Origin: an uncultured Gammaproteobacteria bacterium
GTDB taxonomy: Bacteria > Patescibacteriota > Microgenomatia > UBA8517
Reading direction: 5' to 3'
NCBI GenBank assembly: GCA_964429215.1
Contig: CAYSAY010000006.1
Span: forward strand, 1 to 55,444
DNA: 55,444 nucleotides
Within the stretch, counting starts at the first letter, position 1; every line of letters starts with the position of its first letter. Shown piece after piece: positions 31,734 to 54,577 of the stretch. The position numbers and the translations under genes are program-made. The notes below the pieces were generated by a model. That model saw nothing but the letters and a program-made list of their open reading frames with translations. It searched no databases and was not told the origin of the DNA.

Positions 31734-32254
31734 AAATAGCAATTGATGCACGATTATATGGACCAGGACATACAGGAAATGGTAGATATACCATGATGTT
31801 AATTGATAATTTGACCAAGATCGATACTACTAATAAGTATTATGTTCTGCTTAGAAAAGAATATTTTGATAACCTTAATTTACCAAAAAACTTTAAGAAG
31901 ATTCTTGCAGATTTTAATCATTATTCTTTTGAAGAGCAAATTAAATTACCATTTATATTATATAAATTAAATATTGATCTTGTTCATTTTCCACATATAA
32001 ATGTTCCGGTATTCTACCGTGGTAATTATATTGTTACGATTCACGATTTAATTATGCACAAATTTAAAGGAGGATCAGCAACTACTAGGAAGTTCCCAAT
32101 TTATCAGATTTGGAGAATGGGCTATCATCTTGCTTTTGCAAAAGCTGTATATGGGGCAAATAAAATAATAGTACCAAGTCAGAGTGTCAAAAATGAAGTA
32201 ATTTCTTTTTATAAAATTCAACCGAATAAAGTGGAGGTAACTTATGAAGGGTGA
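31730..32254 (+). CDS. GT4 glycosyltransferase, N-terminal (acceptor) Rossmann domain only; first half of a split gene
   Basis: 174 aa. MKIAIDAR...HFPH...TIHDL...IIVPSQSVKNEV...KVEVTYEG then stop. Aligns by eye with the N-domain of the intact paralog at 23063..24148. Confidence 0.7.
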   Translation: MKIAIDARLYGPGHTGNGRYTMMLIDNLTKIDTTNKYYVLLRKEYFDNLNLPKNFKKILADFNHYSFEEQIKLPFILYKLNIDLVHFPHINVPVFYRGNYIVTIHDLIMHKFKGGSATTRKFPIYQIWRMGYHLAFAKAVYGANKIIVPSQSVKNEVISFYKIQPNKVEVTYEG

Positions 32255-32786
32255 TTACTTTGTCTTTGTGGGGAATGCGTATCCTCATAAAAATTTGGAA
32301 AGATTAGTTAAGGCAGTTGTAAAACTTAATGAAAAACAAAAGGTTGTATTAAAAATTTCATCTAGTAGGAATATTTTTACTGGAAGATTAGAAAAACTTA
32401 TTAAGAGCCAAAATTCTAGTAAATATATTGAGTTATTAGGATATGTATCAGATAGCGACCTTTCTAAGTTATATAAAAATTCTGTTGCATTTGTTTTTCC
32501 TACTCTTGCTGAAGGTTTTGGTTTGCCTCCACTTGAAGCTATTAGAGCAGGTACTTTGGCAGTCGTCTCAGATATACCTGTACTTAAAGAAGTATATCAA
32601 GATTCAGTTAATTATTTTGATCCCACAAGTATTGAATCGATTGCAAAAGAACTAGAAATAATTTTAAAAATGACAGCTGATGAAAGAAAGAAAAAAATAT
32701 TATTTGCACAGAATTATATTAAAAAGTATTCATGGCTTAAAATGGCAAAAGAAACACTTAAAATATATGAGGGGAATTCAAAATGA
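32244..32786 (+). CDS. GT4 glycosyltransferase, C-terminal (donor) Rossmann domain only; second half of a split gene
   Basis: 180 aa. DYFVFVGNAYPHKN...PTLAEGFGLPPLEAIRAGTLAVVSDIPVLKEV. ATG 32244 is preceded by GGAGG (32233-32237). Confidence 0.75.
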   Translation: MKGDYFVFVGNAYPHKNLERLVKAVVKLNEKQKVVLKISSSRNIFTGRLEKLIKSQNSSKYIELLGYVSDSDLSKLYKNSVAFVFPTLAEGFGLPPLEAIRAGTLAVVSDIPVLKEVYQDSVNYFDPTSIESIAKELEIILKMTADERKKKILFAQNYIKKYSWLKMAKETLKIYEGNSK

Positions 32787-33427
32787 AAAAGAAAACCTAT
32801 TTATATTCAGTTGTTTTAGTGCTTATTTTTCTAGCTACTATAATTGCTTTTTATTGGTTTTCTAAATCTCCATATTTTTTAAGTGTAGATACTTGGATTA
32901 AGGCAAATGTTGTTACTTATGTAATTTTTTTATTTTTATACAAAACTGTTGGTGTTTTATTTCCACCAATTCCTGGAGGATTAGTTACATTAGCATCTAT
33001 ACCTTTTTTGGGATGGATTAATGCTTATTTGATAGATTTTTTTGGAAGTATTTGCGGAGGAATAATTGCTTATTATTTAGCTAAGAAATATGGTCACCCA
33101 CTTTTGTTAAAAATTTTTGGAGAAGATATAGCAAGAAAGATCGAAAGTATTAAAGTAAAGAAAAATAGAGAAATTGAAGCTGTATTTACATATAGGTTGG
33201 CATTGGGAAGTACAATTCTTGAGGCTGTTTACTATGGAGCAGGTTTTTTAAAAATTGGGTTTAGAAATTTTTTGATCGGGAGTATTATCTCACATACACT
33301 GGTCGGAGTTCCTACCTTTTTTCTTGCCAGTAATATATTAAATGGTGAAAATATAATATTGACTGTGCTAATTACTATAGTTGGAATTGTTTTTGTCTTA
33401 TTTACAAAAGGGAGATATTTTGAATGA
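32783..33427 (+). CDS. DedA/TVP38-TMEM64 (VTT/SNARE-associated domain) family membrane protein
   Basis: 214 aa with 5-6 hydrophobic segments. VGVLFPPIPGG motif typical of the VTT domain. Confidence 0.6.
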   Translation: MKKKTYLYSVVLVLIFLATIIAFYWFSKSPYFLSVDTWIKANVVTYVIFLFLYKTVGVLFPPIPGGLVTLASIPFLGWINAYLIDFFGSICGGIIAYYLAKKYGHPLLLKIFGEDIARKIESIKVKKNREIEAVFTYRLALGSTILEAVYYGAGFLKIGFRNFLIGSIISHTLVGVPTFFLASNILNGENIILTVLITIVGIVFVLFTKGRYFE

Positions 33428-34590
33428 TTGAAACAGAGCTTGATAATCTTAAAATTGCAATTGTATATGATAGGGTAAATAAATTTGGTGGGGCGGAGAG
33501 AGTTCTTATGGCGCTTCATGAAATGTTTCCTGATGCACCACTTTACACTTCTGTATATGACAAAGAAAATGCTCCCTGGGCAAAGAATTTTCCTAGTGTG
33601 CATACTTCTTTTCTACAAAAAATTCCTATTTTAAGAAATTACCATGAATTAATGGGCTGGCTTATGCCATTAGCATTTGAACAATTCGATTTTAATGAAT
33701 ATGATGTTGTAATTTCAGTTACTTCAGAAGCGGCAAAAGGAATTATTACAAATTCCAACACTTTCCACTATTGTTATATATTAACTCCAACTAGATATCT
33801 TTGGAGTGGAAGAGATTTTTATTTAAATAATCCACCAAAAATATTTAAGATTTTCCCTTTCTATAAATATATTTCTTGGCCATTTCTTACTTATGTCAAA
33901 TGGTGGGATAAAGTGGCAAGCCAAAGGCCTGACAAAATTATTTCAATTTCAACCGAAGTACAAAAAAGAATTAAAAAATATTACGATCGAGATTCTGAAA
34001 TTATATTTCCTCCAGTTATTACGCCAGAAGTAGCATTAGTAAAACATCCAAAGGATGGTACATATTACTTTATTCATGGACGATTTGAACCATATAAAAG
34101 ACTTGATTTAATAATTGATACGTTTATTAATTTAGACTATCAGCTTGTAGTATCAGGAAGTGGTTCAGAATTTAATAAATACAAAGATAATAATTACAAA
34201 AATATAAAATTTATCGAAAAACCTTCAGACGCTGAATTATCAGATTTATATTTAAACGCAAAGGCATTTTTAATGCCACAAGATGAAGACTTTGGAATTA
34301 CATCAGTTGAAGCGCAAAGTTATGGTGTCCCTGTTATTGCTTTTCGAAGTGGTGGAGCGCTTGATACGGTAATTGAAAATAAAACTGGAGTTTTCTTTGA
34401 TAGGCAAAAAGTTGGTGATTTAAAGCAAGCAATTGCAAAATTTGATACAATGAGTTTTAATAGAGAGAACTTAATCAAAAATGCTGAAAAATTTAGCAAA
34501 GACCGATTCAAAAGAGAATTACAAAGATCACTTGTACGCTCTTATTCTAGCTGGAGGAGGGGGAACACGACTTTGGCCAAAATCACTTGA
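33424..34590 (+). CDS. GT-B fold glycosyltransferase (family 4)
   Basis: 388 aa. KIAIVYDRVNKFGGAERVL N-terminus; MPQDEDFGITSVEAQSYGVPVIAFRSGGALDTV..TGVFF. The last 30 or so codons overlap the next gene. Confidence 0.8.
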   Translation: MIETELDNLKIAIVYDRVNKFGGAERVLMALHEMFPDAPLYTSVYDKENAPWAKNFPSVHTSFLQKIPILRNYHELMGWLMPLAFEQFDFNEYDVVISVTSEAAKGIITNSNTFHYCYILTPTRYLWSGRDFYLNNPPKIFKIFPFYKYISWPFLTYVKWWDKVASQRPDKIISISTEVQKRIKKYYDRDSEIIFPPVITPEVALVKHPKDGTYYFIHGRFEPYKRLDLIIDTFINLDYQLVVSGSGSEFNKYKDNNYKNIKFIEKPSDAELSDLYLNAKAFLMPQDEDFGITSVEAQSYGVPVIAFRSGGALDTVIENKTGVFFDRQKVGDLKQAIAKFDTMSFNRENLIKNAEKFSKDRFKRELQRSLVRSYSSWRRGNTTLAKIT

Positions 34591-35623
34591 AAAAACTCCA
34601 AAACAATTTTTAAAAATATTTAATGGTAAGACCTTAGTCGAAGTGACAGGCGAAAGACTAAACAAATTGTTACCTTGGGAAAAAATATTTGTTGTTACTA
34701 CCTCGAAACCTTACGGAGATGAAATTAAAAAACTTTTGCCTAAAGTTCCAAAAGAAAATATTTTAGTAGAACCTGAGAGAAGAGATAGTGCAGCAGCACA
34801 TGCTCTTGGTGCTGTTTATATTTTAAATAAGGATCCAGAAGCTGTGATAATTAATGCAGCCTCAGATCATTTTGTTACTCCTCAATTAAATTATGAAAAA
34901 ACAATGCTTGCAGCTAGTAAATTTGCTTTTGAACAGAATGGGTTAATTGCAGTTGGTATTCGTCCTCAATATCCACATTCAGGACTAGGACATCTTAAAA
35001 AGGGTGAACGAGTTTCTACTTCAGAGGGAAGATTTGTATTTAAATTAGATAAATTCGTTGAAAAACCACCAATTGAAATTGCAAAAAAATATACAGAATC
35101 TGGTGAATATTTTTGGAATGCCAATCATTATGTGTGGAGAGCAGATAAATTTTTACAGGAAGTAAAAATGTATGCAAAAGTATTAGATGAAGGTATTTCA
35201 AAGATAGCCAAAAGCATTGGGACGAGTATAGAACAAAATACTATTGAGACTGAATATAAAAAGTTTGAAAAAATTTCAGTAGATTATGCGATATCTGAGA
35301 AATCAAAAGATTTTTATATGATAATTGCTGATTATAGCTGGACGGATATTGGAGATTGGAATGAGGTTTGGAAGAATTTACCAAAAGATGCATCTGGAAA
35401 CGTAATAATTACGAGTGGTGAAAAAGGTGGAGAAGTAATTAATATTGATACAACAGATGCTCTGATCCATTCTGATGGAAGATTAATAGCTGCAATTGAT
35501 GTTGATAATTTAATTATTGTTGATACCAAAGAAGCTCTTCTTATTTGTTCTAAAAGCCATGCTCAGTCAGTTAAAAAAATTGTTGAGAAGCTGAAAGAAG
35601 AGGGACGAAAAGAACTCCTTTAA
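34481..35623 (+). CDS. manC: mannose-1-phosphate guanylyltransferase-like sugar-phosphate nucleotidyltransferase (no C-terminal PMI/cupin domain)
   Basis: LILAGGGGTRLWPKS; EPERRDSAAA; YFWNANHYVW. The real start may be the in-frame TTG at 34532, which would shrink the 110-nt overlap. Confidence 0.8.
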   Translation: MLKNLAKTDSKENYKDHLYALILAGGGGTRLWPKSLEKTPKQFLKIFNGKTLVEVTGERLNKLLPWEKIFVVTTSKPYGDEIKKLLPKVPKENILVEPERRDSAAAHALGAVYILNKDPEAVIINAASDHFVTPQLNYEKTMLAASKFAFEQNGLIAVGIRPQYPHSGLGHLKKGERVSTSEGRFVFKLDKFVEKPPIEIAKKYTESGEYFWNANHYVWRADKFLQEVKMYAKVLDEGISKIAKSIGTSIEQNTIETEYKKFEKISVDYAISEKSKDFYMIIADYSWTDIGDWNEVWKNLPKDASGNVIITSGEKGGEVINIDTTDALIHSDGRLIAAIDVDNLIIVDTKEALLICSKSHAQSVKKIVEKLKEEGRKELL

Positions 35624-40997: not shown

Positions 40998-41669
40998 TTA
41001 ATCAAAAGTTAGATGCTTTATATTTTCCAATTCTTTTTGATAATCAGCGTTATCTGTAACAAAGTTTTTGTATGAGTCGTCGGTTTTAAAACTACTCAAT
41101 ATATCGTCTTTTATACAAAATGGAAATTTAGTTTGATTTAAATATTCTGGAAGTGAGGACCATTCGTATTTTATCAGTTTGTCAATATCTGCAACTATTG
41201 CAGATGAATAAGGATTCAAATGTATATATCTTGAAACATGCAACAATTGTTCTTCACTGTCAATTCTAACAGCTTTAAATTGGCCTTGAAATAAAGGCCC
41301 TACTCTTTCATTTTTAATATTAAAATACCGCACATGGCTATTTTGTAAGTTAGCTAATAATTTTGAAATCCCATTGTCATTATTTTGTTTTAACAGCAAA
41401 TGAAAATGATTTGGCATCAAGCAATACGAAATAATATCAGTATTGGTTTTTTCCTTTGCTAATCTACTCCATATTTCTTGCCTTTGATCACCAGCAAGCG
41501 TCATGAATTTTGAAAATTTAACAGGGTGATCAAGATAATTGTAGTATTTTAGTAGTAATAAAAAACGACGGTATTCATATTTAGATTTAAAAATTGGTCG
41601 TTTATTAACACCGCGATTAAATATATGGTAGTAATAATTAGTTATTAATGGTGTCTGACGTGCTGGCAT
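40998..41669 (-). CDS. HUH-Y1 (IS200-like / REP-associated tyrosine transposase, COG1943-type) transposase
   Basis: 223 aa. YYHIFNRGVNKRPIF N-terminus; HUH motif MPNHFHLLL; catalytic-Tyr region VSRYIHLNPYSSAIV. Confidence 0.8.
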   Translation of the reverse strand: MPARQTPLITNYYYHIFNRGVNKRPIFKSKYEYRRFLLLLKYYNYLDHPVKFSKFMTLAGDQRQEIWSRLAKEKTNTDIISYCLMPNHFHLLLKQNNDNGISKLLANLQNSHVRYFNIKNERVGPLFQGQFKAVRIDSEEQLLHVSRYIHLNPYSSAIVADIDKLIKYEWSSLPEYLNQTKFPFCIKDDILSSFKTDDSYKNFVTDNADYQKELENIKHLTFD

Positions 41670-42620: not shown

Positions 42621-43055
42621 ATGTTATTAGGAACATATCAGGTCAAAGTGTCAGCTTCACGAAGAGTCTTTATTCCTGCCCCCTTTCGAGAAACGTTGGG
42701 AGAGAACTTAATTTTAGCCAAATGGTACGAACAATGTTTGGTATTAATTGCCGATAGTAGCTGGCAGGCTCTTTACAATAGGTTGGTAGGGGATCAGAAG
42801 ATAATTGTTTCTCCGATCCGAGAAACAGAAAGATTTATCTTAGGATCTGCTTATAATACAACACCAGATGAACAGGGAAGAATTGTAATACCTGAATTAT
42901 TATCTCATTTTGCAAACCTAACTTATGAAATAAGTTTCATAGGTTTAGGTGACAGAGTTGAGATTTGGGACAGTAGGATTTGGGAAGAAAAACAAAAGTC
43001 GTTAGCTAAAGAAGCATTTGAAATAATTGAGAATTTGGCAAACAAAAAGGATTAA
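42621..43055 (+). CDS. mraZ: transcriptional regulator MraZ
   Basis: 144 aa. LLGTYQVKVSASRRVFIPAPFRE and a second half DEQGRIVIPELL (two SpoVT/AbrB-like repeats). First gene of a dcw-type cluster. Confidence 0.9.
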   Translation: MLLGTYQVKVSASRRVFIPAPFRETLGENLILAKWYEQCLVLIADSSWQALYNRLVGDQKIIVSPIRETERFILGSAYNTTPDEQGRIVIPELLSHFANLTYEISFIGLGDRVEIWDSRIWEEKQKSLAKEAFEIIENLANKKD

Positions 43056-43060
43056 AGATT

Positions 43061-43924
43061 ATGACAACTAAATATCACGAAACAGTATTAGTTAAAGAGA
43101 TAAAAAAAGAATTACCAAAAGGTAAGGTAATAGATTGCACACTTGGTACTGGAGGTCATAGTGAAGCCTTAATTAGTAAAGGTTGTGAAGTACTTGGAAT
43201 AGAAGCTGATCCTAAAATGCTTGCAATTGCAAAAGAGCGTTTGGGTAAAGATAAGAATCTTGCCATAAATGGTAAAAAATTAGTTTTAGGTAATTTTGTT
43301 GATATAGATAAAATTGCGAAAGAAAATGGTTTTACTGAAGTTGATGGAATTTTATTTGACTTAGGAGTTTCGAATTTGCACCTTAAGAGTGATGATAGAG
43401 GATTCTCGTTTACAGAAAGTGAACAAGATCTTGATATGAGATTAAACCCTGAGGGTTTAGGAGTAAAAGCATCTGACTTATTAAACGCTTTAAATGTAGG
43501 TCAACTTACAGAAATGTTTAGTAAAGTTATGAACCAAGATTTATCAAGAAGGTGGGCTAGAAGAGTAATAAATACTAGACCATTTAAAACAGTTGCTGAC
43601 TTGAAAGTTGTGGCACACGATATGCCACATAAGCAAAGCTTGCCACATAGTGGTAAAAAAAATTTAGATTCTGCAACTTTGCCGATGTTGGCACTTAGAA
43701 TTGCAGTAAATAGTGAATATGAAAATTTAGTTGAGGTGTTGCCAAAAGCGTTTTCGTTACTTAAAGAGGGTGGCAAACTTTTAATAATAACTTTTCATTC
43801 GGGCGAAGAGAAGATATTGGAAAATAATATTTCTGATAAAGGATACATAATATATCCTTCAAATGAAGAAATATTAGAAAATCCAAGATCAAGGAGTGCG
43901 AAATTACATATTTATACAAAATGA
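43061..43924 (+). CDS. rsmH: 16S rRNA (cytosine1402-N4)-methyltransferase RsmH (MraW)
   Basis: YHETVLVKE; DCTLGTGGHSEAL; DGILFDLGVSNLHL; FHSGEE; NPRSRSAKL. Confidence 0.9.
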   Translation: MTTKYHETVLVKEIKKELPKGKVIDCTLGTGGHSEALISKGCEVLGIEADPKMLAIAKERLGKDKNLAINGKKLVLGNFVDIDKIAKENGFTEVDGILFDLGVSNLHLKSDDRGFSFTESEQDLDMRLNPEGLGVKASDLLNALNVGQLTEMFSKVMNQDLSRRWARRVINTRPFKTVADLKVVAHDMPHKQSLPHSGKKNLDSATLPMLALRIAVNSEYENLVEVLPKAFSLLKEGGKLLIITFHSGEEKILENNISDKGYIIYPSNEEILENPRSRSAKLHIYTK

Positions 43925-43965
43925 AAATAAACATTATGAAAATAAACTTTAAAAAAATAAATATT
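43921..43965. repeat. three tandem 15-nt units at the 5' end of the ftsL-like ORF
   Basis: ATGAAAATAAACATT / ATGAAAATAAACTTT / AAAAAAATAAATATT, encoding MKINI-MKINF-KKINI and giving two in-frame ATG starts. Confidence 0.8.
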
Positions 43966-44220
43966 ATTTGGGGTATTAACCTAATAGTTTTTGCCTTTGT
44001 CGTGTTTTTAGGTATCGAGCAAGCTGGTAAGGGTGCAGAAATATCTAAAATAGAAAAAGAACTTGAAACGCAAATTAGTTTAAAGAGAGATTTATCAGAA
44101 CAAATATTTAATTCTGGAAGTGAAAATAAATTGGGAGATGTAAGTGCCGACCAAGGATTTTCAAAACCTTCAAAAGTTGTTTATATGAACTCCGAGGAGG
44201 TATCATTAACTTTAAAATAA
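43921..44220 (+). CDS. FtsL-like small bitopic cell-division protein (positional call)
   Basis: 99 aa. Single TM helix (IIWGINLIVFAFVVFLGI) followed by a short coiled-coil-like segment. Sits in the canonical slot between rsmH and ftsI. Confidence 0.5.
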   Translation: MKINIMKINFKKINIIWGINLIVFAFVVFLGIEQAGKGAEISKIEKELETQISLKRDLSEQIFNSGSENKLGDVSADQGFSKPSKVVYMNSEEVSLTLK

Positions 44221-44227: not shown

Positions 44228-45925
44228 ATGATTAATAGACTACATGTTGTAATGCTTGTTTTCGCAGTTTTGTTTTCTCTTGTCTTGTCTAAATTATTTT
44301 ATTGGCAAATTGTAAAAGGTAGTGAACTAAAGCAAGAAGCAAGCTATCAATATAATGGATCAAAGAAAATTACAGCTACACGTGGAAGTATCCTAGCGAA
44401 CGATGGGACATGGTTGGTTGCTAATAGGACTAATTGGTTACTTTTTGCAGAAATACCACTTCTTGATAAATCTTCAAAAGAAATTGCAAATATTCTAGCA
44501 CCTTTAATAGTGGAAAATGATTATCCTTCTGAAGATGAATATAAATTAGGTTTACTGCAGGAGATAGATAGATTACAGGAGATGATGGATCGAAAAGGAG
44601 CTGCTTGGGTACCTTTAAAACATAGGATTCCAACTGATATAAAAAATAAAATTGAAGAATTAAATATTAGTGGATTGGGATTTGATCCTGAAGAAAATAG
44701 ATACTATCCAGAAGGATCAGTATCCGCGCAGCTACTTGGATTTGTGGGTAAAGATAAAGATGGCAATGATACTGGTTATTTTGGTCTTGAGGGTTATCAT
44801 AATATTTCATTATCAGGGAAAGACGGATTTATTCAAAGAGAAAAAGATTTAAAAGGTGTACCGTTTGTGTCATCTAAAACCAGTGAAATTAACTCTGTAC
44901 CTGGAACTGAACTTGTAACTTATATTGATAAGAGAATAAGTAATTTGGCAGATATTAAATTACGAGAAGGAATTGAAAAATATGGTGCAAAAGAAGGATC
45001 AGTTGTTATCATGGATCCAAAAACTGGAGGGATTCTTGCTATGAGCTCTTGGCCATCTTATGATCCTGCTAAATATAATGAATATGAAGGAACGTTATAC
45101 AGAAATCCTGCTATTTCTGATAATTTTGAACCAGGATCTGTATTTAAAGTAATTGTAATGGCTGCTGGGATTGATGCTGGCGTTGTTGAACCTGATACTA
45201 AATGTGATATTTGCGATAAGCCTTTAAAGGTTGATAAATATTATATAGAAACTTGGGATAATAAATATCACCCTGATTCCACAATGACTGATGTAATAGT
45301 TCATTCGGATAACGTAGGAATGAGTTTTGTTGCTCAAAGACTTGGAGAAGATAAAGTATATGAATATCTTGATAAATTTGGTATTGGTAAACTAAGTGGA
45401 GTTGACCTACAGGGAGAATCGAATGTTCCACTACGAAAAAAAGGTACTTGGAATATAGTTGATTTGGTAACTTCTTCATTTGGACAAGGTGTTGCCACAA
45501 CACCAATGCAACTTGTAAGAGCAGTTGGTGCAATAGCTAATGATGGATATCTCGTAACTCCTCAAGTTGTAAATAATAAAAAAATTGAAAAGGTCCAAAT
45601 AATTTCAAAGGAAGCTGCAGACAAAATGACAGAGATAATGATGGACTCTGCAACTCACGGTGAAGCTAAGTGGGCTGATATCAAAGGATTTAGAGTCGCT
45701 GGAAAAACTGGAACAGCACAAATTCCAATTGCAGGTCATTATGATGCTGAAAAGACTATTGCAAGTTTTGTTGGGTTTGCTCCAGCGGAAGATCCAAAGT
45801 TTGTTATGATAGTAACTTTAAAGGAGCCACAAAGTTCTCCTTGGGCCTCAGAAACTGCTGCTCCTTTGTGGTATTCTATATCTCGAGACCTTTTCAATTA
45901 CTTTGGCATTCAGCCAGATAATTAG
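44228..45925 (+). CDS. ftsI: class B penicillin-binding protein (FtsI/PBP2-type peptidoglycan D,D-transpeptidase)
   Basis: 565 aa. N-terminal TM helix; SxxK (PGSVFK); SxN (HSDN); KTG (GKTGTAQ). Confidence 0.9.
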   Translation: MINRLHVVMLVFAVLFSLVLSKLFYWQIVKGSELKQEASYQYNGSKKITATRGSILANDGTWLVANRTNWLLFAEIPLLDKSSKEIANILAPLIVENDYPSEDEYKLGLLQEIDRLQEMMDRKGAAWVPLKHRIPTDIKNKIEELNISGLGFDPEENRYYPEGSVSAQLLGFVGKDKDGNDTGYFGLEGYHNISLSGKDGFIQREKDLKGVPFVSSKTSEINSVPGTELVTYIDKRISNLADIKLREGIEKYGAKEGSVVIMDPKTGGILAMSSWPSYDPAKYNEYEGTLYRNPAISDNFEPGSVFKVIVMAAGIDAGVVEPDTKCDICDKPLKVDKYYIETWDNKYHPDSTMTDVIVHSDNVGMSFVAQRLGEDKVYEYLDKFGIGKLSGVDLQGESNVPLRKKGTWNIVDLVTSSFGQGVATTPMQLVRAVGAIANDGYLVTPQVVNNKKIEKVQIISKEAADKMTEIMMDSATHGEAKWADIKGFRVAGKTGTAQIPIAGHYDAEKTIASFVGFAPAEDPKFVMIVTLKEPQSSPWASETAAPLWYSISRDLFNYFGIQPDN

Positions 45926-45973: not shown

Positions 45974-47263
45974 ATGAATATAAAAGTACAAGGAGGCCAA
46001 GTTCTATCAGGTACAATCACGCCTTCTGGAAGTAAAAATTCAGCAGTTGCAGTAATTCCAGCCACGATTCTTTTTGATAAACCAATAACACTTAAAAATA
46101 TTCCTGATATAACTGATGTAACAAGATTGGTGTCAATTTTAGAAAATATGGGCTCAAAAATATCTTGGGACAAGGAAAATAACAGTCTTACAATAGATAA
46201 TTCTGAAATTAAATACAGCCCAGTTACCAAAGAAAACATTGGTAATATGAGAGGCACATCACTTCTTTGGGGTCCAATGCTTGCAAGATTTGGGAAGGTT
46301 TCGTTTGAGGAATTACCTGGAGGCTGTACTTTAGGCATAAGGCCACTAGGAGCACACTATGATGCGTTTAAATCGCTAGGTGTAGATATTGAGCTCTCAT
46401 CTCAAAGTGTCGTAATGGATGCTAAATCTGCCAAATCTGCAACCATTTGGTTAGCTGATATGAGTCCAACTGTAACTGAAAATGCAGTAATGTTGTCTGC
46501 AACTTTAAAAGGTACAACAACAATAATTGGTGCAGCTTCTGAACCTCAAGTACAGGATTTATGTAGACTGTTAGTAACGTCAGGCGCCAAGATAGAGGGC
46601 ATTGGTTCAAGTGTGTTAACAATTGTTGGTGTGTCAGAATTGACTCCACCTAAAGAATATGAAATATTCCCAGACCACTATGAAATAGCAACATTTTTAG
46701 CTTTAGGTGCGACTACTGGTGGAGAAATAAGGGTAAATAATGCAATGCCTGATTTGTTTGGTCAAATTGACCATGTGTTTTCAGAGTTTGGTATTAATAT
46801 TAGGTATGAGGATAAAACTGCTATTGTTTCTGGTGGGCAAAAAATAAAAATTAATAATGAAGGTAATGGCACTTTGGACATTAAAGCTCAGCCTTGGCCA
46901 GGGCTTCCTGTTGATATGCTTCCACTTTTTATCCCAATTGCGTTATCAGCCGAAAGTGGAAGTGCACTTTTCCATAATTGGATGTATGAATCTGGACTTT
47001 TCTGGACATCTGAACTTTCAAAACTTGGAGCAAATATTATAATGGCAGATCCTCACAGAGTCATAGTAAATGCTGGAAATAAGCTAGTAGGTGCCAAGTT
47101 AGAAGCTCCATATATCATAAGAGCAGTAGTTGCCATGACAATGTGTGCAATGACGGCAAAGGGTGAAACAACGATCCTAAACGCAGATGCTCTTTATAGG
47201 GGTCATCCTAACTTTGCTAAAAATTTGAAAAACTTAGGTGCTAAAATTGAGGAGACACAGTAA
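45974..47263 (+). CDS. murA: UDP-N-acetylglucosamine 1-carboxyvinyltransferase MurA
   Basis: 429 aa. GSKNSAV; LPGGCTLGIRPL (active-site Cys retained); RGHPNF C-terminal motif. Confidence 0.95.
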   Translation: MNIKVQGGQVLSGTITPSGSKNSAVAVIPATILFDKPITLKNIPDITDVTRLVSILENMGSKISWDKENNSLTIDNSEIKYSPVTKENIGNMRGTSLLWGPMLARFGKVSFEELPGGCTLGIRPLGAHYDAFKSLGVDIELSSQSVVMDAKSAKSATIWLADMSPTVTENAVMLSATLKGTTTIIGAASEPQVQDLCRLLVTSGAKIEGIGSSVLTIVGVSELTPPKEYEIFPDHYEIATFLALGATTGGEIRVNNAMPDLFGQIDHVFSEFGINIRYEDKTAIVSGGQKIKINNEGNGTLDIKAQPWPGLPVDMLPLFIPIALSAESGSALFHNWMYESGLFWTSELSKLGANIIMADPHRVIVNAGNKLVGAKLEAPYIIRAVVAMTMCAMTAKGETTILNADALYRGHPNFAKNLKNLGAKIEETQ

Positions 47264-47274
47264 AAATTTCAAAG

Positions 47275-49215
47275 ATGATTCAATTTGATTCAAGAAAAGT
47301 CAAAAAAGGTGATATCTACGTCGCCGTTAAAGGTTTGACGGTAGATGGACATGATTTTATTGATCAGGCAATTAAAAATGGGGCAAAGCAAGTTTTTGGC
47401 GAGAAAGAAATAAAAAATCCAATGTATATTAGAACACTTAATTCAAGAGTAAAACTTGGAGAACTTGCGAGTGAATATTATGGCGATCCAAGTAAAAAAT
47501 TAAAAGTTATTGGAGTTACTGGCACAAAGGGTAAAACTACTACTTGCCACCTAATCCATCATATTTTAACTCAAAATGGTAAAAAGGCAGGATTAATATC
47601 TACAATTTCTGCACAAGGGTTTCATACAACTGCACCTGATATTTTAACTTTAAATAAAGAATTGTCTCAAATGGTCAAAGATAACTATGAATATGTGGTT
47701 CTTGAAGTTAGTTCTCATGGAATTGATCAGGGTAGAATTGCTGGAATAAAGTTTGATATATCAGTTTTGACTAATTTAGCACCCGAACATTTGGATTATC
47801 ATAAAACATTTAAAGAATATAAAAGAGTTAAGATGATGTTTGTAAATTCTGCAAAATTTAGGGTTTTTAGTCCTAAAACTACTAAATTGAAAATTTTAGA
47901 AGGAGATTTTAATAATATTAATGCAGAAACTGCTATTGAAGTGTGTAAAGAGTTGGGCATTTTGGAATCATCTTCAATAAAAGCACTTAAAACATTTAAA
48001 TTACCTGAAGGAAGATTAGAAGAAATTAAAAATGACAAAGGTTTTAGAGTTTTTGTAGATTTTGCCCATACTCCAGATTCATTGGAAGTAGCCTTAAAAT
48101 ATCTTAAGAGTATAACGAAGGGTAAGTTAATTTCTGTTTTTGGATGTGCTGGTGAGAGGGATCCGCGTAAAAGATCTAGAATGGCTAAAATTTCTACTAG
48201 GATTGCTGACCTTTCTGTATTTACAGCAGAAGATCCTAGGACTGAAAATATTTTTAAAATATTAAAACAAATGAAAAGTGGGGTAATTAGTAAAAGTTAT
48301 GTTTCTATACCAGAAAGAGGAGAAGCTATAGCTTATGCATTATCGATAGCAAAAAAAGGTGATATTGTTGGTGTTTTTGGCAAAGGACATGAGAAGTCTA
48401 TGTGTTATGACTCATATGAGCATCCATGGAGCGATCAAGATTTTATTAAAAACCAATTTGATGGATTTACTGGCCTTGTCGGAATAGTTTTGGCAGGTGG
48501 AAAAGGTAAAAGAATGCATTCAAATTTACCTAAGATTATGCATACTATTGTTGGTAGACCTATGATAGCTTATTCATTAGAAAATTTAAGAAATGCTGGA
48601 ATTAAACAAGTTATCCCCGTTCTTGGATATAGAAGAAATATTGTTTTAAATCGTCTGTCTAAAAATGTGATTTATGCTGTTCAACCAAAACCTCTTGGTA
48701 CTGGTAATGCTGTATTAAATTCTTTCCCAAAAATTTCAAAAGATACTTCTACTTTGCTTGTTATTAATGGAGACGATAGTGCTTTCTACACACCAAAAAC
48801 AATTAAAAATGTTATTGAATTACATTACAAAAATAATTCAATTTTGACATTTGTTAGCTTGATTCAAGAAAATCCTGCTGGTTTAGGTAGGGTTGTGAGG
48901 GATTCTAAAGGGAAGTTATTAGGAACTGTTGAAGAGAAAAATGCTACAGAGGATCAGAAAAAAATAAAAGAGGTTAATGATGGACTTTATATTTTTAATT
49001 ACAAATGGCTTCAAAAGAATATATTTAATATCCAAAAGAATGATGTTGCTAAAGAGTATTATCTTACTGATCTAATCGAGATTGCATTAAATAATAACGA
49101 AATAGTTTCAACTTATACTTTGCCTGATTCATCGGAATGGCAAGGTATTAATACACAAGATCAATTGAAAGAAGCTGAAAAAAAGATGTTGAAAAGACTT
49201 CAAATAAATGAATAA
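47275..49215 (+). CDS. murE: fusion protein: MurE-type Mur ligase (aa 1 to about 395) plus GlmU-type N-terminal pyrophosphorylase/uridyltransferase domain (aa about 400-646, no LbH acetyltransferase domain)
   Basis: MurE part: IGVTGTKGKTTT, DFAHTPDSLE, FGCAGERDPRKR, FTAEDPRTEN, GKGHE. GlmU part: VLAGGKGKRMHSNLPKIMHTIVGRPM, QPKPLGTGNAV, INGDDS, VEEKNATEDQKKIKEVNDGLYIF, KEYYLTDLIEIA, WQGINTQDQL. Confidence 0.85.
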   Translation: MIQFDSRKVKKGDIYVAVKGLTVDGHDFIDQAIKNGAKQVFGEKEIKNPMYIRTLNSRVKLGELASEYYGDPSKKLKVIGVTGTKGKTTTCHLIHHILTQNGKKAGLISTISAQGFHTTAPDILTLNKELSQMVKDNYEYVVLEVSSHGIDQGRIAGIKFDISVLTNLAPEHLDYHKTFKEYKRVKMMFVNSAKFRVFSPKTTKLKILEGDFNNINAETAIEVCKELGILESSSIKALKTFKLPEGRLEEIKNDKGFRVFVDFAHTPDSLEVALKYLKSITKGKLISVFGCAGERDPRKRSRMAKISTRIADLSVFTAEDPRTENIFKILKQMKSGVISKSYVSIPERGEAIAYALSIAKKGDIVGVFGKGHEKSMCYDSYEHPWSDQDFIKNQFDGFTGLVGIVLAGGKGKRMHSNLPKIMHTIVGRPMIAYSLENLRNAGIKQVIPVLGYRRNIVLNRLSKNVIYAVQPKPLGTGNAVLNSFPKISKDTSTLLVINGDDSAFYTPKTIKNVIELHYKNNSILTFVSLIQENPAGLGRVVRDSKGKLLGTVEEKNATEDQKKIKEVNDGLYIFNYKWLQKNIFNIQKNDVAKEYYLTDLIEIALNNNEIVSTYTLPDSSEWQGINTQDQLKEAEKKMLKRLQINE

Positions 49216-50221
49216 AGGCTTTAAAAAATATTCACAAAAAATTGTTACATTTGGTGGTGGAACAGGTCAGTATCATTTACTTTCAGGTTTAAGAGAACTT
49301 AATGCTAATGAAAAAATTACTGCGGTTGCTGGTACGTGGGATAGTGGAGGAAGTTCAGGTAGGCTTCGTTCTGAAATAGGAGTTTTGCCACCAGGAGACC
49401 TAAGACGATGCATTTTGGCCTTAATGAATGATCCTTATCAAAGGTCAGTCGCTCAAAAATTATTTGATGATAGGCTTGAAGATTTGGTAGGGCCACTTAA
49501 AGGACATTCCTTCGGAAATTTATTAACAGCAAGACTTGACAACATTTATAGTGGTCAAGATAGAGGAATTACCGCTGAATGTGAATTGTTTAGAGTGAGA
49601 TCAAAAGTAATGCCTGTTAGCTTGTCTCGAGTTGAATTAATTGCTGAAACAAAAAAAGGAAATCAAATTGTTGGTGAATCCAATATCGATATAAGAAGTA
49701 AAAGCAGATTGTATGATCAATCAGATAAAATTATCAGAATATATTTTGATACCAGTGCTGACATAAATCCATCTGTAATTAGGGAAATTAAAAACGCTGA
49801 TAAAATTATTTTCGCACAAGGAGATTTGTATACTAGTGTATTACCTCATTTATTAGTATCAGGTGTAAGAGAAGCTATTCAAAAATCTAAAGCAAAACTT
49901 ATATTTGTATTAAATTTGATGACTAAACCAGGGGAAACTGATGGGTATAAAGCATCTGACTTTCTTAAATCCATTTTGTTTTATTTAGATGCACCTGGGA
50001 GGCTTGATTATATGTTGGTAAATACTAATAATTTGGACTCTAAAATTCTTTCTATTTATAAAGAAGAGGGCCAAAAAATGGTTGAAGTTGATGAGGAAAA
50101 TATTAAATTAATTGAGCCAAAAATTACGATTGTAAAAAAATCAATTTTAACTTATTTTAAAAAAGAACATTTATTGAGGCATGATTCTTTGAAATTAGCT
50201 AGCGCTTTATTACAAATATAA
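49208..50221 (+). CDS. yvcK: YvcK/GlmR-like (CofD/UPF0052 family) protein
   Basis: 337 aa. IVTFGGGTGQYHLLSGLR; PPGDLRRC; GHSFGNLL; GDLYTSVLPHLLV. 8-nt overlap with the upstream murE-glmU fusion. Confidence 0.85.
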   Translation: MNKGFKKYSQKIVTFGGGTGQYHLLSGLRELNANEKITAVAGTWDSGGSSGRLRSEIGVLPPGDLRRCILALMNDPYQRSVAQKLFDDRLEDLVGPLKGHSFGNLLTARLDNIYSGQDRGITAECELFRVRSKVMPVSLSRVELIAETKKGNQIVGESNIDIRSKSRLYDQSDKIIRIYFDTSADINPSVIREIKNADKIIFAQGDLYTSVLPHLLVSGVREAIQKSKAKLIFVLNLMTKPGETDGYKASDFLKSILFYLDAPGRLDYMLVNTNNLDSKILSIYKEEGQKMVEVDEENIKLIEPKITIVKKSILTYFKKEHLLRHDSLKLASALLQI

Positions 50222-51181
50222 TTATTTGCTGTATCGCAATTTTATTTTAGGAATTAAATAATCGCTAAAAGTTTTTTCAAAATTAAAATTAATTTTATAG
50301 CCCCAGTCCTTAATTGCTTGGTCACTATTTATTTCTTTTGGCCAGCTATCGACAATTTTTTGCCTTTCTTCATTTATTTTGTAACTAATTTTTGCATTCG
50401 GAAAATTTTTTTTGATTTCTGATTCAATTTGTTCAGCAGACACACTAAAACCACCTATTTCATAGATTTTTTCAAAAAGATTGTTTTTTGGAGCCAAAAG
50501 TAGCATCATCAAAATTTCCACTGCGTCAGACATTGCCATAAATGGAATTGTTGTGTCTGGCCTGACAAAACACTCGTAAGATAAATTTTGAGCTGCTGAA
50601 TGGATCATCTCTGATCCGTAATCGCTTGTACCTCCTGATGGTAAAGTGTCTGGCGATAGTAAACCTGGAAATCTAACTGATCTAAAGTCCACTAAATTAT
50701 TTCTATCGATTGTCGTGTCGAGCAATTTGTAATTTCTGGAAAAATATACCCCTAGATTTTCACAGGCTAGTTTTGAAACTCCATATATAGTAATCGGGTT
50801 GCCATGTGCAGCAATTGAACTAGGGAAAATAAATTTAATTGATTTTTTATTTTCTAATCCACTTTTTGTGACAGCTTTTAGAAGATTGAGAGTTCCTGTT
50901 ATGTTTATGTCAGATGCTAATTCAGGATTTTTCTCTCCACCAGTTGAAAGAATTGATGCGAGGTGGAAAACTATATCAATTTTTTGCTCTTTAAAAATAT
51001 TATCAATACTTTCTTTGTCGATAATATCTGATATATAGAATTTAGTTAGTAGTTTTAGAATTTCTGGTTCTGGCTGTTTAATGTCAAGTGCAATAATTTG
51101 ATAGTTTTTTAAATCAGTAATTTTTTTTACTAATCCATAACCCACTTCCCCTGATATGCCCGTTATTAAAACTGTTTCCAT
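50222..51181 (-). CDS. tdh: SDR-type NAD-dependent L-threonine 3-dehydrogenase (extended SDR, epimerase-like fold)
   Basis: 319 aa. [11 protein letters not shown] (Gly-rich NAD motif); YGVSKLACE (YxxxK); VRFPGLLS...PSGGTSDY, resembling SDR-type TDHs. Overlaps and follows kbl. Confidence 0.7.
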
Positions 51182-52323
51182 ATTTTTTCAAAAATTAATA
51201 ATGCATCATCAAGATCCTTTTTGCTGTGTGCTGCAGAATTCATGATTCTTATTCTAGCTTTTCCTTGAGGTACAGTTGGAAATACAATTGCTTTTGCAAA
51301 TAATCCTTCGTTAAATAGTTCTTTGCTCATATCCTGTGCTTTTTTCGATTCTCCTAACATTATTGGAATAATAGGTGACTTGTTGCTTCCAATATCAAAT
51401 CCAATTTTCTTTAAACCATTTTTAAGATATTCTGCATTTGACCAAAGTGTTTTAACCAAATCATCTGATTCTGTAAGTAAATCCACTGCTGCTATACAGG
51501 CTGCTACGTCAGGTATCGTCATTGCGCTACTAAAGAGAAATGGTCTTGCTCTTTGTGTTAACCATTCAATTAATTCAGTATTTCCTGCGACCATTCCTCC
51601 AACAACTCCAAATGCTTTACTCATTGTTCCAACTTCGATATCTACTTTTCCGTGCAAATTAAAGTGATCGACAATACCTCTACCGTTTGATCCTAATACC
51701 CCTTCTCCGTGTGCGTCATCAACCATTAAGATGGCTTTATATTTACTTGTAACTTTATATATTTCATCAAGTGGGGCAATATCGCCATCCATTGAAAAAA
51801 CACCATCGGTTATTACAAGTTTTTTAACATTTGTTGGGGCTGATTTTAATTTTTGTTCTAGGTCATCCGTATTTAAATGTAGATATCTTATTACTTCTGC
51901 TTTACTTAATTTGCAACCATCAATAATACTTGCATGGTTAAGTTCATCTGAAAATATTAGATCATTCTCTCCAACAATTGCAGGAATTACTGCAAGATTT
52001 GCAGTGAATCCGGATTGGAACGTAAGTACACTTTCTACTTTTTTAAATTTTGCCAATTTTTCTTCAAGTGTTTTATGAAGAGATGTGGTACCTGCAATTG
52101 TACGTACAGCAGCAGGTCCTATTCCATACTTTTTGATTGCTTCAATAGCTGCCGATTTTAATTTCTCGTTATTGGCAAGGCCTAAATAATTGTTTGAGCA
52201 AAAGTTTAAGTATGTTTTTGAATTAATTGTAATTTTTGCATCAATTGCACTCTCAAGGGTGAGTATATTATTGTAAAGGCTTTGATCTTTTAAACTTTGA
52301 ACTTCCTTTTTAATCCAGTCCAT
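51166..52323 (-). CDS. kbl: glycine C-acetyltransferase (2-amino-3-ketobutyrate CoA ligase), alpha-oxoamine synthase family
   Basis: 385 aa. NNYLGL; SGFTANL; DDAHGEG; GTMSKAFG (PLP lysine). Paired with the tdh-like gene. Confidence 0.8.
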
Positions 52324-52345: not shown

Positions 52346-54577
52346 ATGCAAAGAATACATATGATGGGTGTTTCTGGGAGTGGAATGAGTGGAGTGGCAG
52401 CTCTAGCTACAAAAATGGGGTATTCTGTAACGGGTTGTGATATCAAAAATGGTGGCCATAGCCTCGATCATTTAAATGATTGTGATTTGTTAGTTGTATC
52501 TCCGGCAATTCTATATAATGAAACTCCAGACCCTGAATTACTTCTTGGAAAATCTAAAAATATTGTTACTACTTGGGAGGAATTTTTGGGTGGTACTTTA
52601 GCAAAGAACAAAAAAATGATTGCAATTGCTGGTACGCATGGTAAGTCTACAACTACAGGTATGGTTGGGAAATTATTGGAAGATACTGGTTTTGACCCTC
52701 TGGTAATGATCGGAGCAAATGTTAAAGATTGGGGTGGGAATTCTAGGTTTGGAAATGGAGATTATTTTGTAGTTGAGGCTGATGAATTTAATGATAACTT
52801 TTTACACTATAGTCCCGAGGTTATTATTCTTAATAATATCGAATTTGATCATCCTGATTATTTTAATAGTGAAAAGCAATTATTTGAAAGTTTTCATAAG
52901 TTTATCCAAAGGCTTGTTGGTGAGAAAGTGTTAATAGTGAATTGGGATAACGAAGGTGTCAGAAATTTACTAGATGGGTTAGATACTACAAAATTTAAAT
53001 TAATTAAATATTCAAGAGAAGAGACTGATATTAATTTGAATTTAAAGGTGTTGGGTGATCATAATATAACTAATGCTCTTGGTGTAATTGAATTGGGTAA
53101 AGTTTTAAATATAGATCAAGAAAAAATAATTGAAAGTATTGAAAGCTTTGAAGGGATTGGACGGAGGATGGAAGAAATCGGTAAAAATGTATTTGATGAT
53201 TATGCTCATCACCCTACCGCAATTAAAACAACGTTGAATGGTTTACGAAATAAATATCCGGATGCGACTATTTGGGCAATTATTGAACCTCATGGATATA
53301 AAAGGACAAAGGCGCTACTAAATTTTTATGAAGGTGCGTTTGATTCAACTGATAATGTATTAATTGGACCAATTTATAAAGCCCGTGATGTTATAGATAC
53401 TTCAATTAATTCTGAATCGATTGTAAGTGTCTCAAAGCATAAAAATATAAGATCTTGTGATTCAATTGATCAAATTTTGGAAATTATAAAGAAAGAGAAA
53501 AAAGATGGTGATATCTTTGTTGTTATGGGTGCTGGTAATAGTAATAAATGGGCACAAGAAATTGTTGAAACTATTCATGGACAGACACAAGTAAGTTTTT
53601 CAGATATAACTACTTTAAAAGTTGGAGGAAGAATAAAACATTATTTTGAAGTTAAATCGAAAGAAGAGTTGGTTGAAAAAGTAAATTTAGCAACACAAGA
53701 GAAGTTGCCAATTTTTGTTATAGGTGGGGGAACTGATATTGCTGTTACTGAAAAAGATTTTGATGGGGTAGTGATTAAATATGTTGGTAATAAAATAATA
53801 TTTGTAAATAATATAGTAACCGCTGAATCAGGTGCAGTATGGGATAAATTGGTAGAAGAATCAGTAGATAGAAACTTGGCAGGCATTGAATGTTTGTCTG
53901 GCATACCTGGTACTGTAGGTGCGTCCCCTATACAAAATATTGGCGCTTATGGTCAAGAACTCTCTGAAACGTTTGTTAAATTAACTGCGTATGATATAAA
54001 GAATCAAAAGTTTGTAGAGTTTAGCAAAGAAGAGTGCAAATTTGGTTACAGAGAAAGTATTTTTAAACAAAAAGAATATTGGCAAAAATTTGTAATAATT
54101 GAAGTTACATTAACATTAATTAAAGATGGCAAAGTTTCAGCAAACTATGAATCGTTAAAGGAATATGTAAAAAGTGAAAATCCTACTTTGCAAGAAATTA
54201 GATTTGCAGTTTTAAAAGTTCGATCAGTAAAACTTGTAAATCCATTAGAAATACCAAATGCTGGATCTTTTTTTAAAAACCCAATTGTTACTGAAGATCT
54301 GAAGAATAAACTAATACAAAAATATCCCGATTTAAAATATTTTGCGTTTGGTGAAAATTTCAAAATCCCTGCAGGTTGGTTAATTGAGAAAACAGGATGG
54401 AAAGGTAAAGCATTAGGTCCAGTTAAGGTTTCTGACAAACATGCATTAATTATTACTAACCCAGAAGGTAAAGGGACTTTTGACGATGTTAAAAATCTTG
54501 CAGATAAAATAATGAGTGATGTTAAAAATGAATTTGGTATAGATCTTGAACCAGAAGTACAATATATAAATCTATGA
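52346..54577 (+). CDS. murC: fusion protein: MurC (UDP-MurNAc--L-alanine ligase, aa 1 to about 410) plus MurB (UDP-N-acetylenolpyruvoylglucosamine reductase, aa about 415-743)
   Basis: MurC part: IHMMGVSGSGMSGVA, IAIAGTHGKSTTT, DDYAHHPTAI, MGAGN. MurB part: TTLKVGGRIKHYFEV, FVIGGGTDI, GIPGTVGASPIQNIGAYG, YRESIFK, NAGSFFKNP. Confidence 0.9.
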   Translation: MQRIHMMGVSGSGMSGVAALATKMGYSVTGCDIKNGGHSLDHLNDCDLLVVSPAILYNETPDPELLLGKSKNIVTTWEEFLGGTLAKNKKMIAIAGTHGKSTTTGMVGKLLEDTGFDPLVMIGANVKDWGGNSRFGNGDYFVVEADEFNDNFLHYSPEVIILNNIEFDHPDYFNSEKQLFESFHKFIQRLVGEKVLIVNWDNEGVRNLLDGLDTTKFKLIKYSREETDINLNLKVLGDHNITNALGVIELGKVLNIDQEKIIESIESFEGIGRRMEEIGKNVFDDYAHHPTAIKTTLNGLRNKYPDATIWAIIEPHGYKRTKALLNFYEGAFDSTDNVLIGPIYKARDVIDTSINSESIVSVSKHKNIRSCDSIDQILEIIKKEKKDGDIFVVMGAGNSNKWAQEIVETIHGQTQVSFSDITTLKVGGRIKHYFEVKSKEELVEKVNLATQEKLPIFVIGGGTDIAVTEKDFDGVVIKYVGNKIIFVNNIVTAESGAVWDKLVEESVDRNLAGIECLSGIPGTVGASPIQNIGAYGQELSETFVKLTAYDIKNQKFVEFSKEECKFGYRESIFKQKEYWQKFVIIEVTLTLIKDGKVSANYESLKEYVKSENPTLQEIRFAVLKVRSVKLVNPLEIPNAGSFFKNPIVTEDLKNKLIQKYPDLKYFAFGENFKIPAGWLIEKTGWKGKALGPVKVSDKHALIITNPEGKGTFDDVKNLADKIMSDVKNEFGIDLEPEVQYINL

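Follow-up and report, generated by a model that had tools for sequence, protein, structure and literature searches.

GlmU is a drug target, and to our knowledge its bifunctional route to UDP-N-acetylglucosamine (UDP-GlcNAc) counts as near-universal and essential in bacteria. Here we describe a gene within positions 1 to 55,444 of contig CAYSAY010000006.1 of assembly GCA_964429215.1 (this whole stretch is called the window) that very probably encodes a genuine two-enzyme chimera of a Woesebacteria-like member of the candidate phyla radiation (CPR)/Patescibacteria, in which MurE is followed by a bacterial-type GlmU pyrophosphorylase domain without the left-handed beta-helix (LbH) domain. The window domain shares with bifunctional GlmU (E. 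coli, S. pneumoniae, M. tuberculosis; TIGR01173) the fold, the signature loop and the catalytic, metal-binding and GlcNAc-binding residues. By contrast with those enzymes, the window protein has no LbH acetyltransferase/trimerisation domain, carries its GlmU-type domain as an appendage of MurE, and has Lys in place of Thr14 and GDDSAFY in place of GD(T/V)PL; lacking the LbH feature, it falls outside the bifunctional GlmU equivalog.

N-terminal-only 'truncated GlmU' proteins have been reported from RefSeq genomes, for which 'an unidentified acetyltransferase' was inferred (Fong et al. 2026, bioRxiv 10.64898/2026.06.23.733835). Like the window domain they are uridyltransferase-only and without LbH, but they are stand-alone proteins of cultured taxa that also carry NagU, whereas the window domain is fused to MurE, lies in a division and cell wall (dcw)/mur cluster and belongs to a large CPR family. 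Among Mur chimeras, a 2023 survey that excluded unidentified species lists MurE-MurF, MurC-Ddl, MurC-MurB, MurG-MurC, MurD-FtsW and MraY-MurG, and contains zero occurrences of 'GlmU' or 'nucleotidyl' (PMC10214165). As in those chimeras, two peptidoglycan-precursor enzymes from adjacent dcw genes, with steps that are not always consecutive, are joined here, and the window also has a chimera of the described MurC-MurB type; unlike in those chimeras, the partner is a hexosamine-nucleotide enzyme rather than a Mur, Ddl or membrane-step enzyme. In full-text literature searches we met neither a MurE-GlmU chimera nor an account of GlmU from CPR/Patescibacteria. We did not find the fusion described, and regard it as a previously undescribed combination of known things (Mur chimeras, split GlmU) whose sequences are public under generic names. 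Natural Mur chimeras would thereby gain a new class, and the fusion suggests that just the uridyltransferase half of GlmU is kept, wired into the Mur ligase genes, in a large group of uncultivated bacteria.

The two halves of the fusion protein

The fusion gene (murE::glmU-NTD, NTD standing for N-terminal domain; 47275..49215, + strand) is one open reading frame (ORF) of 646 amino acids in the ORF table, and its product matched the Pfam domains Mur_ligase N (residues 1-48), M (81-194) and C (246-371) and NTP_transferase (403-640). Residues 1-395 (47275..48459, +) form a compact three-domain Mur ligase, as supported by TIGR01085, NF001126 and Foldseek; GlmU profiles, Protein Data Bank (PDB) matches and the predicted fold place a short linker (~396-402) and a GlmU-type N-acetylglucosamine-1-phosphate (GlcNAc-1-P) uridyltransferase domain (~403-643) in the remainder (48460..49215, +). 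The protein has each of the motifs GTKGKTT, DFAHTPDS, GERDPRKR, AEDPRTEN, GKGHE, LAGGKGKRM..LPK, LGTGNAV, EEKNAT, EVNDG and EYYLTDLI, with key residues that do not change across 22 aligned homologues, and the linker between the halves is short and unbroken in 22 of 22. An AlphaFold2 model built on this 22-homologue alignment was confident (pLDDT, the predicted local distance difference test, 89.9; pTM, the predicted template-modelling score, 0.87). ORF table, Pfam and motifs thus agree with an earlier sequence-only reading of this DNA, which had proposed a complete Mur ligase and the N-terminal domain of GlmU within a single frame.

Such an ORF could also be an artefact, with adjacent murE and glmU genes joined through a missed stop, a frameshift or chimeric assembly, and some related lineages indeed have an unfused murE and, after it, a separate GlmU-domain gene (L007, L020 and L094 of the 168 related loci that we fetched and compared with the window proteins). 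We compared Logan contigs of four runs (X1-X4) with the window over 46900-50700. Contigs assembled independently from X1, X2 and X3 showed zero differences at the junction (48440-48490), which in X1 is crossed by a single 9.6-kb Logan contig of depth 23 and likewise by the Logan contigs of X2 and X3, and run X4, from a ~97% identical strain at depth 61, showed substitutions but no indel within the fusion gene. Moreover, in a search of 5.8 billion proteins, at least 120 protein clusters (630-693 amino acids, 54-98% identity) from NCBI, JGI, ENA and Logan assemblies combined Mur-ligase and NTP_transferase domains as the window protein does. The unbroken linker of the homologues and the GC content, which is ~31% in the window and even across the fusion gene, also speak against an artefact, to which we give a negligible probability. 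These results rule out the assembly error that the sequence-only reading had named as a possible refutation, and mark the architecture as that of a widespread family, not a one-off. The named clusters come from Woesebacteria or the Patescibacteria group and are labelled MurE or 'Mur ligase family protein'; with these labels only, metabolic reconstructions could score the uridyltransferase step as absent.

Residues 1-395 scored 417 bits against the murE model TIGR01085 (cut-off 257) and 407 bits against NF001126, the MurE equivalog of the diaminopimelic acid (DAP) type (cut-off 373), as compared to 236 bits against the L-Lys-type model NF010628, which is under the cut-off of 536 of that model. 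This half carries the P-loop GTKGKTT (83-89; invariant in the 22 homologues), K186, DFAHTP (262-267), R295, EDPR (319-322) and GKGHE (369-373), K186 sitting at a position that we take to be that of the carbamylated lysine of other Mur ligases. Foldseek superposed the N-terminal part of the model on MurE of E. coli, M. tuberculosis, S. aureus and T. maritima, with the best template-modelling score (0.73, target-normalised) for E. coli MurE (1e8c) and an E value of 1e-33 for the M. tuberculosis chain (2xja); the half is ~80-100 amino acids shorter than solved MurE chains, at the N-terminus and in the middle domain. Curated profiles above their cut-offs, the sequence match to solved structures and the predicted fold together identify the N-terminal part as MurE.

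The sequence-only reading had further linked the Arg of the DNPR motif of MurE to meso-DAP specificity. The motif here does read EDPR, with E319, D320 and R322 invariant in the 22 homologues, and in the alignments it falls opposite DNPR in the MurE of B. pertussis and M. tuberculosis, and also opposite DDPR in Thermotoga MurE. From these sequences meso-DAP appears the likelier third residue for the MurE half; given the Thermotoga DDPR, EDPR leaves DAP specificity unsettled.

The last 251 amino acids matched eleven GlmU equivalog models best, the top one being NF010934 with 222.7 bits. Matches to these GlmU models (200-223 bits) covered just positions 2-241 of the 447 in the profile; the model of bifunctional GlmU, TIGR01173, scored 202, under its equivalog cut-off of 367. 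The same residues scored 51 bits against RmlA, 64 against ManC and 48 against MurU, and 93 bits against the archaeal-type model TIGR03992 as compared to 223 for bacterial GlmU. GlmU chains of the PDB matched the domain at E 1e-43, and other nucleotidyltransferases at 1e-8 or worse. The domain is 33-35% identical to Gram-positive GlmU, and Foldseek placed the C-terminal part of the model on UDP-GlcNAc-bound S. pneumoniae GlmU (1g97) at 1.7 A over 241 columns. Thus profile, sequence match to solved structures and predicted fold agree on a GlmU uridyltransferase domain, as had been read from the motifs, and the four-fold score gap rules out assignment to RmlA, ManC or MurU.

We mapped residues through a phmmer alignment to S. 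pneumoniae GlmU, in which R15 corresponds to R413 of the fusion protein, K22 to K420, Q72 to Q470, G77/T78 to G475/T476, D102 to D500, G139 to G538, E154 to E553, N169 to N568, Y197 to Y596 and N227 to N626; none of these residues varies in the 22 homologues (down to 55% identity). We take them to comprise the catalytic Arg and Lys, the uracil-binding Gln, both metal ligands and the GlcNAc contacts, the last presumably the equivalents of T78, E154, N169, Y197 and N227 in GlmU structures. K25, Q76 and D105 of GlmU are cited as needed for activity in a study of Listeria (PMC10128056), and position 169 is the site of a defective GlmU variant in a preprint on S. aureus (bioRxiv 10.64898/2026.06.23.733835).

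The fusion protein had no Pfam match to a Hexapep/LbH acetyltransferase domain, and it stops at S. pneumoniae GlmU residue ~246, presumably inside the long linker helix that precedes the LbH domain. Together with the end of the profile matches at position 241 of 447, this bears out the earlier claim that the acetyltransferase domain is missing. Without an LbH domain the canonical GlmU homotrimer cannot form, and the domain is predicted to be a monomeric, tethered uridyltransferase that is unable to acetylate glucosamine-1-phosphate (GlcN-1-P). Isolated N-terminal fragments of E. coli GlmU reportedly retain uridyltransferase activity. From sequence and fold, we infer both activities of the chimera.

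Several observations weigh against reading this gene as a MurE-GlmU chimera that works with YvcK: firstly, Lys (K412) replaces the signature Thr of LxxGxGTxM, at a position that varies among homologues; secondly, a clade-specific GDDSAFY insertion follows the first metal-binding Asp, so that kinetics or sugar preference could differ from those of GlmU; thirdly, the amino-acid specificity of the MurE half is uncertain, its best solved match being T. maritima MurE, which was deposited as an LD-lysine ligase and has DDPR; fourthly, the nearest strain (X4, which is locus L081; ~97% identical) has no yvcK at the locus, so that YvcK is not an obligate partner.

The first two of these would also suit a C-terminal domain that acts on another sugar phosphate, such as N-acetylmuramic acid-1-phosphate (MurNAc-1-P; a MurU-like salvage feeding MurC-MurE), Glc-1-P (RmlA/GalU-like), Man-1-P, or GlcN-1-P acetylated after uridylylation. 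All such enzymes have this fold in common, RmlA, ManC and MurU gave weak matches, no acetyltransferase was seen nearby, and a Mur-ligase fusion would fit a UDP-MurNAc salvage enzyme. We consider this alternative unlikely in view of the profile scores and PDB E values given above, the invariance of the presumed GlcNAc-contact equivalents, the use of the same operon slot for a GlmU-type bifunctional enzyme in sister lineages, and the presence in the window of a separate ManC-type enzyme (34481-35623). GlcNAc-1-P as substrate is the reading that we carry forward.

YvcK/GlmR and the cluster around the fusion

In B. subtilis, YvcK (GlmR) binds UDP-GlcNAc and stimulates GlmS (PMC6171935, PMC7525490), and Tyr265 and Arg301 are required for the binding (as cited in PMC10128056); D40, D41 and N198 have been proposed as catalytic for the uridyltransferase activity of Listeria GlmR (PMC10128056). 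The gene downstream of the fusion (yvcK/glmR; 49208..50221, +) encodes a member of this CofD-like, UDP-GlcNAc-binding family, as judged by TIGR01826 (255 bits, cut-off 196), Pfam CofD (252 bits) and PDB 2O2Z (E 3e-51), and its start overlaps the stop of the chimera by 8 nt, read from the sequence and the ORF table as ATGAATAA (49208..49215, +); family and overlap are as the sequence-only reading had them. Y284 and R324 of this YvcK fall opposite Y265 and R301 in the B. halodurans chain, whose numbering we assumed to equal that of B. subtilis, and are invariant in 11 CPR YvcK proteins. Sharing this Tyr and Arg with GlmR of B. subtilis and L. monocytogenes, and encoded near glmS in related loci, the window protein fits a GlmS-stimulating role (PMC6171935, PMC7525490). 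By contrast with the yvcJ-glmR-yvcL operon of Firmicutes (PMC10986989), the window gene lies in a mur cluster, overlapping the GlmU-domain gene upstream and followed by an antisense SDR/kbl pair downstream. It also differs from Listeria GlmR in two of the three proposed catalytic residues: D45 is retained, D41 is replaced by S46 and N198 by H214. S46 is near-invariant in CPR YvcK, and position 214 is His in the Woesebacteria-type proteins and Asn in three others (n=11).

These residues bear on a further alternative, in which the GlmU-like domain would be a non-enzymatic UDP-GlcNAc/UTP sensor regulating MurE, and UDP-GlcNAc would be made elsewhere, for example through a uridyltransferase activity of YvcK or an enzyme of the NagU/UAP type. 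Listeria GlmR is reported to form UDP-GlcNAc from GlcNAc-1-P and UTP (PMC10128056), alternative uridyltransferases are found in bacteria with partial GlmU (bioRxiv 10.64898/2026.06.23.733835), and the fused activities are non-consecutive steps. The two replacements in this YvcK argue against its serving as that uridyltransferase, as does the dispensability of yvcK at the locus in the sister strain. Moreover, R413, K420, D500 and N626, the catalytic Arg and Lys and both metal ligands of our mapping, are invariant across the aligned homologues, and stand-alone copies of the domain are common, which suits an enzyme better than a regulatory appendage. We therefore regard a sensor as very unlikely, and retain a catalytically active GlmU-type domain as the preferred reading.

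In 11 of 13 informative loci, yvcK lies no more than one gene from the fusion (L086 and L093, too short to place yvcK, are outside the 13). It is directly downstream of the fusion in the window, L001, L002, L083, L167 and L168; it comes after murA and before the fusion, in some cases with a glmS, HAD-like or GNAT gene intervening, in L003, L004, L085, L087 and the P0045 contig; and it is absent from the flank in L084 and L081/L082. In L081 (6722/6723), as compared to window 49196-50230, exactly 1033 nt with yvcK are gone and 18 unrelated nt stand instead, and the L081 chimera has 644 amino acids and abuts an antisense SDR gene. Since L001, L002 and L168 keep the order of the window, the absence in L081/L082 is most simply a recent loss. 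The glmS gene adjoins the fusion or yvcK genes in L001, L004, L083, L165 and L167, and is also in the locus of the unfused lineages L005, L007, L020 and L095. The functional unit of murA, fusion and yvcK proposed in the sequence-only reading is supported by related loci, whose mur clusters keep the GlmU domain and yvcK, often joined by glmS, in company with each other in various orders; adjacency of yvcK proved non-obligatory (L081/L082, L084). These arrangements offer comparative support, outside Firmicutes, for a link between YvcK/GlmR, GlmS and UDP-GlcNAc formation.

Upstream of the fusion lies murA, encoding UDP-GlcNAc enolpyruvyl transferase (45974..47263, +; Pfam EPSP_synthase, 201 bits, full length), which ends 11 nt before the fusion starts. 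From this gap and the 8-nt overlap with yvcK, murA, the fusion gene and yvcK are probably co-transcribed. Promoter and terminator scans of the window gave counts no higher than in shuffled sequence, and an Rfam scan of the window gave no match. The cluster begins with mraZ (42621-43055, +; Pfam MraZ), rsmH/mraW (43061-43924, +; Pfam Methyltransf_5), a small ftsL-like ORF (43921-44220, +) and an ftsI-type penicillin-binding protein gene (44228-45925, +; Pfam PBP_dimer and Transpeptidase). Beyond yvcK and the antisense pair follows a murC::murB chimera of 743 amino acids (52346..54577, +; Pfam Mur_ligase N/M/C, FAD_binding_4 and MurB_C).

Related loci and the origin of the fusion

Among the related loci, the order mraZ-rsmH-ftsL-ftsI-murA-murE::NTD-...-murC::murB recurs in L001-L004, L081-L087, L093, L167 and L168, and the order mraZ-rsmH-ftsL-ftsI is also found in L001-L004, L083, L084 and L165-L168. 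The murA gene stands directly upstream of the fusion or of yvcK in every related locus that reaches that far, and murC::murB adjoins the fusion in L001-L004, L081-L085 and L167, with two separate genes in L168. Two scans had a narrower reach: a profile scan of genome contigs with the full-length alignment was dominated by ordinary MurE, leaving about 8 useful loci, and a metagenome scan sampled relatives of at most 50% identity only.

The MurA proteins of the cluster differ more than their neighbours. Window MurA is 33-36% identical to the same-position MurA of L001-L004 and L083-L085, loci in which FtsI, MurE and YvcK are 49-74% identical to those of the window; it is 58% identical to the MurA of L006 and 99% to that of L081. 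This looks like an in-place swap of a MurA paralogue or xenologue.

The LbH-less domain also occurs unfused in mur clusters. A stand-alone version (~248 amino acids) lies inside the cluster in L007, L020, L089, L094, L095 and L099; it adjoins yvcK in L020, L094, L095 and L133 and murC or murA in L089 and L099, and in L007 it follows an archaeal-type GlmU gene. In a second kind of chimera the domain precedes MurC (NTD::MurC, 666 amino acids), in the order murE - NTD::murC - murB - murA (L091 9992-11992; L096 and L098 9971-11971; L097 5208-7208). In a third arrangement (L005, L165 and L166), a gene for an archaeal-type NTP-transferase plus LbH protein stands directly 3' of an unfused murE, with the rest of the operon the same, including murC::murB. 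The archaeal-type gene lies at 4226-5476 in L005, 8001-9239 in L165, 8001-9236 in L166 and 11161-12417 in L007, and a small HAD/NIF-like gene usually comes after it. The L005 and L007 proteins scored 263-273 bits against TIGR03992 (273 for L005), slightly below the cut-off of 292, and the L165 and L166 genes carry the Pfam domains NTP_transferase and Hexapep/LbH. The archaeal-type bifunctional enzyme thus belongs to a different subfamily, keeps LbH and is unfused to MurE, and in L005, L165 and L166 it occupies the same operon slot (3' of murE, by yvcK and murC::murB), presumably as a functional equivalent; this positional replacement marks the slot as the place of a UDP-GlcNAc-forming enzyme.

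An exhaustive HMMER search with the domain only yielded 937 representatives (50% identity) at E <1e-30. A Pfam scan covered 149 of the best 150 representatives, the one left out having a phosphoglucomutase/phosphomannomutase (PGM/PMM) domain; among the 149, 26 had Hexapep (LbH), 10 Mur-ligase, at least 7 HAD, one an APH-type kinase and one an SDR domain, and most were stand-alone proteins of ~250 amino acids. Several proteins of ~470 amino acids, a GlmU-like length, have a DxDxT HAD-like C-terminal domain and no LbH. The LbH-less domain with other partners (APH-type kinase, PGM/PMM mutase, HAD-like, SDR) was seen in P0151, P0227, P0154, P0140, P0205, P0142, P0158, P0161 and P0149. The LbH-less GlmU domain is a large CPR family, usually stand-alone in the mur cluster.

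In a neighbour-joining tree (drawn without support values), the MurE-fused domains form one group, apart from the MurC-fused ones, which is consistent with one fusion event per neighbour. In the scenario that we propose, an LbH-less GlmU gene would lie between murE and murC in the mur cluster of this lineage and, in a compact genome with overlapping genes, loss of a stop codon would have joined the domain to MurE on its left in one clade and to MurC on its right in another. Because the partner varies and the steps are non-consecutive, fixed 1:1 co-expression or co-assembly of Mur enzymes is a likelier benefit than channelling.

GlcNAc-1-P supply and other genes of the window

In the proposed working of the chimera, the MurE half would add the third, diamino acid (most likely meso-DAP) to UDP-MurNAc-L-Ala-D-Glu, and the C-terminal ~245 residues would convert GlcNAc-1-P and UTP to UDP-GlcNAc and pyrophosphate. 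The UDP-GlcNAc formed would be used by MurA, encoded just upstream, as its first consumer, and YvcK/GlmR, which keeps the UDP-GlcNAc-binding residues, would probably tune hexosamine supply via GlmS, as in B. subtilis. On this scheme GlcNAc-1-P would have to come from another enzyme or from salvage, and the origin of GlcNAc-1-P in CPR turns into a specific question of reliance on a host or salvage.

No gene for GlmS, GlmM/PGM or an LbH-bearing GlmU was found within the 55-kb window. We considered two candidates for the missing acetyltransferase and rejected both. The hexapeptide acetyltransferase of the window (26731-27333) is WcaF/O-acetyltransferase-like and lies in a glycan locus. A 166-amino-acid GNAT encoded opposite yvcK in L083 had only itself as a homologue in 5.8 billion sequences and no informative PDB match, and is not a conserved partner. 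In that locus, the interval 13062-18109 (-) holds glmS, three ATP-citrate-lyase-like genes (ATP-grasp/citrate-binding, CoA-ligase and citrate-synthase-like) and this GNAT gene; other GNAT genes lie near genes of the P0045 contig and L020.

With the L005 protein as query, archaeal-type GlmU did not coincide with the fusion on any contig among the 120 best relatives, taking one contig per match, which weakly suggests that archaeal-type GlmU and the LbH-less fusion are alternative solutions. Fusions within the domain family (NTD::APH kinase, PGM/PMM::NTD and NTD::HAD) suggest a mutase, an anomeric kinase or a HAD enzyme as partner and point to a non-canonical route to GlcNAc-1-P; they come from other family members, not from this genome, and are hints only. 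We tentatively raise the possibility, which we ourselves think doubtful, that Woesebacteria-like CPR abandoned the canonical GlmU acetyltransferase route: GlcNAc-1-P would come from salvaged GlcNAc phosphorylated at C1 by an APH-type kinase, or by a eukaryote-like path from GlcN-6-P through GlcNAc-6-P to GlcNAc-1-P, and the uridyltransferase would be built into a Mur-ligase assembly (MurE::GlmU-NTD plus MurC::MurB), with YvcK/GlmR and GlmS as a supply valve.

Between yvcK and murC::murB, an antisense pair (50222-52323, -) encodes a Kbl/BioF-family acyltransferase and an SDR 'epimerase-like' protein. The acyltransferase scored 563 bits against TIGR01825 and 506 against the glycine C-acetyltransferase model NF005394 (cut-off 460), and the two genes probably make up a threonine dehydrogenase/Kbl pair; the gap that they fill in the window is occupied by glmS in L001, L083 and L167. 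An antisense ORF for an IS200-like Y1 transposase (40998-41669, -; 223 amino acids) lies between an aminoacyl-tRNA synthetase gene and mraZ, and L167 has a 223-amino-acid Y1_Tnp gene at the same place.

The first part of the window (1-38243) is a large surface-glycan locus with five PMT_2-type GT-C proteins, a DUF6056 protein, many GT4/GT2 transferases, Wzy-like and flippase genes, a DegT aminotransferase, four methyltransferases and an antisense AsnB-like amidotransferase, as well as the WcaF-like acetyltransferase already mentioned, the ManC-type enzyme, a priming sugar transferase and a DUF4012 protein. Two ORFs of this locus (31730-32254 and 32244-32786, +) overlap by 11 nt, the first encoding the N-terminal half (Glyco_transf_4) and the second the C-terminal half (Glycos_transf_1) of a GT4 glycosyltransferase, which marks a split or frameshifted gene. 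The ManC ORF overlaps the preceding glycosyltransferase gene (33424-34590) by 110 nt; because its NTP_transferase match begins at residue 20, the true start of ManC is probably further downstream.

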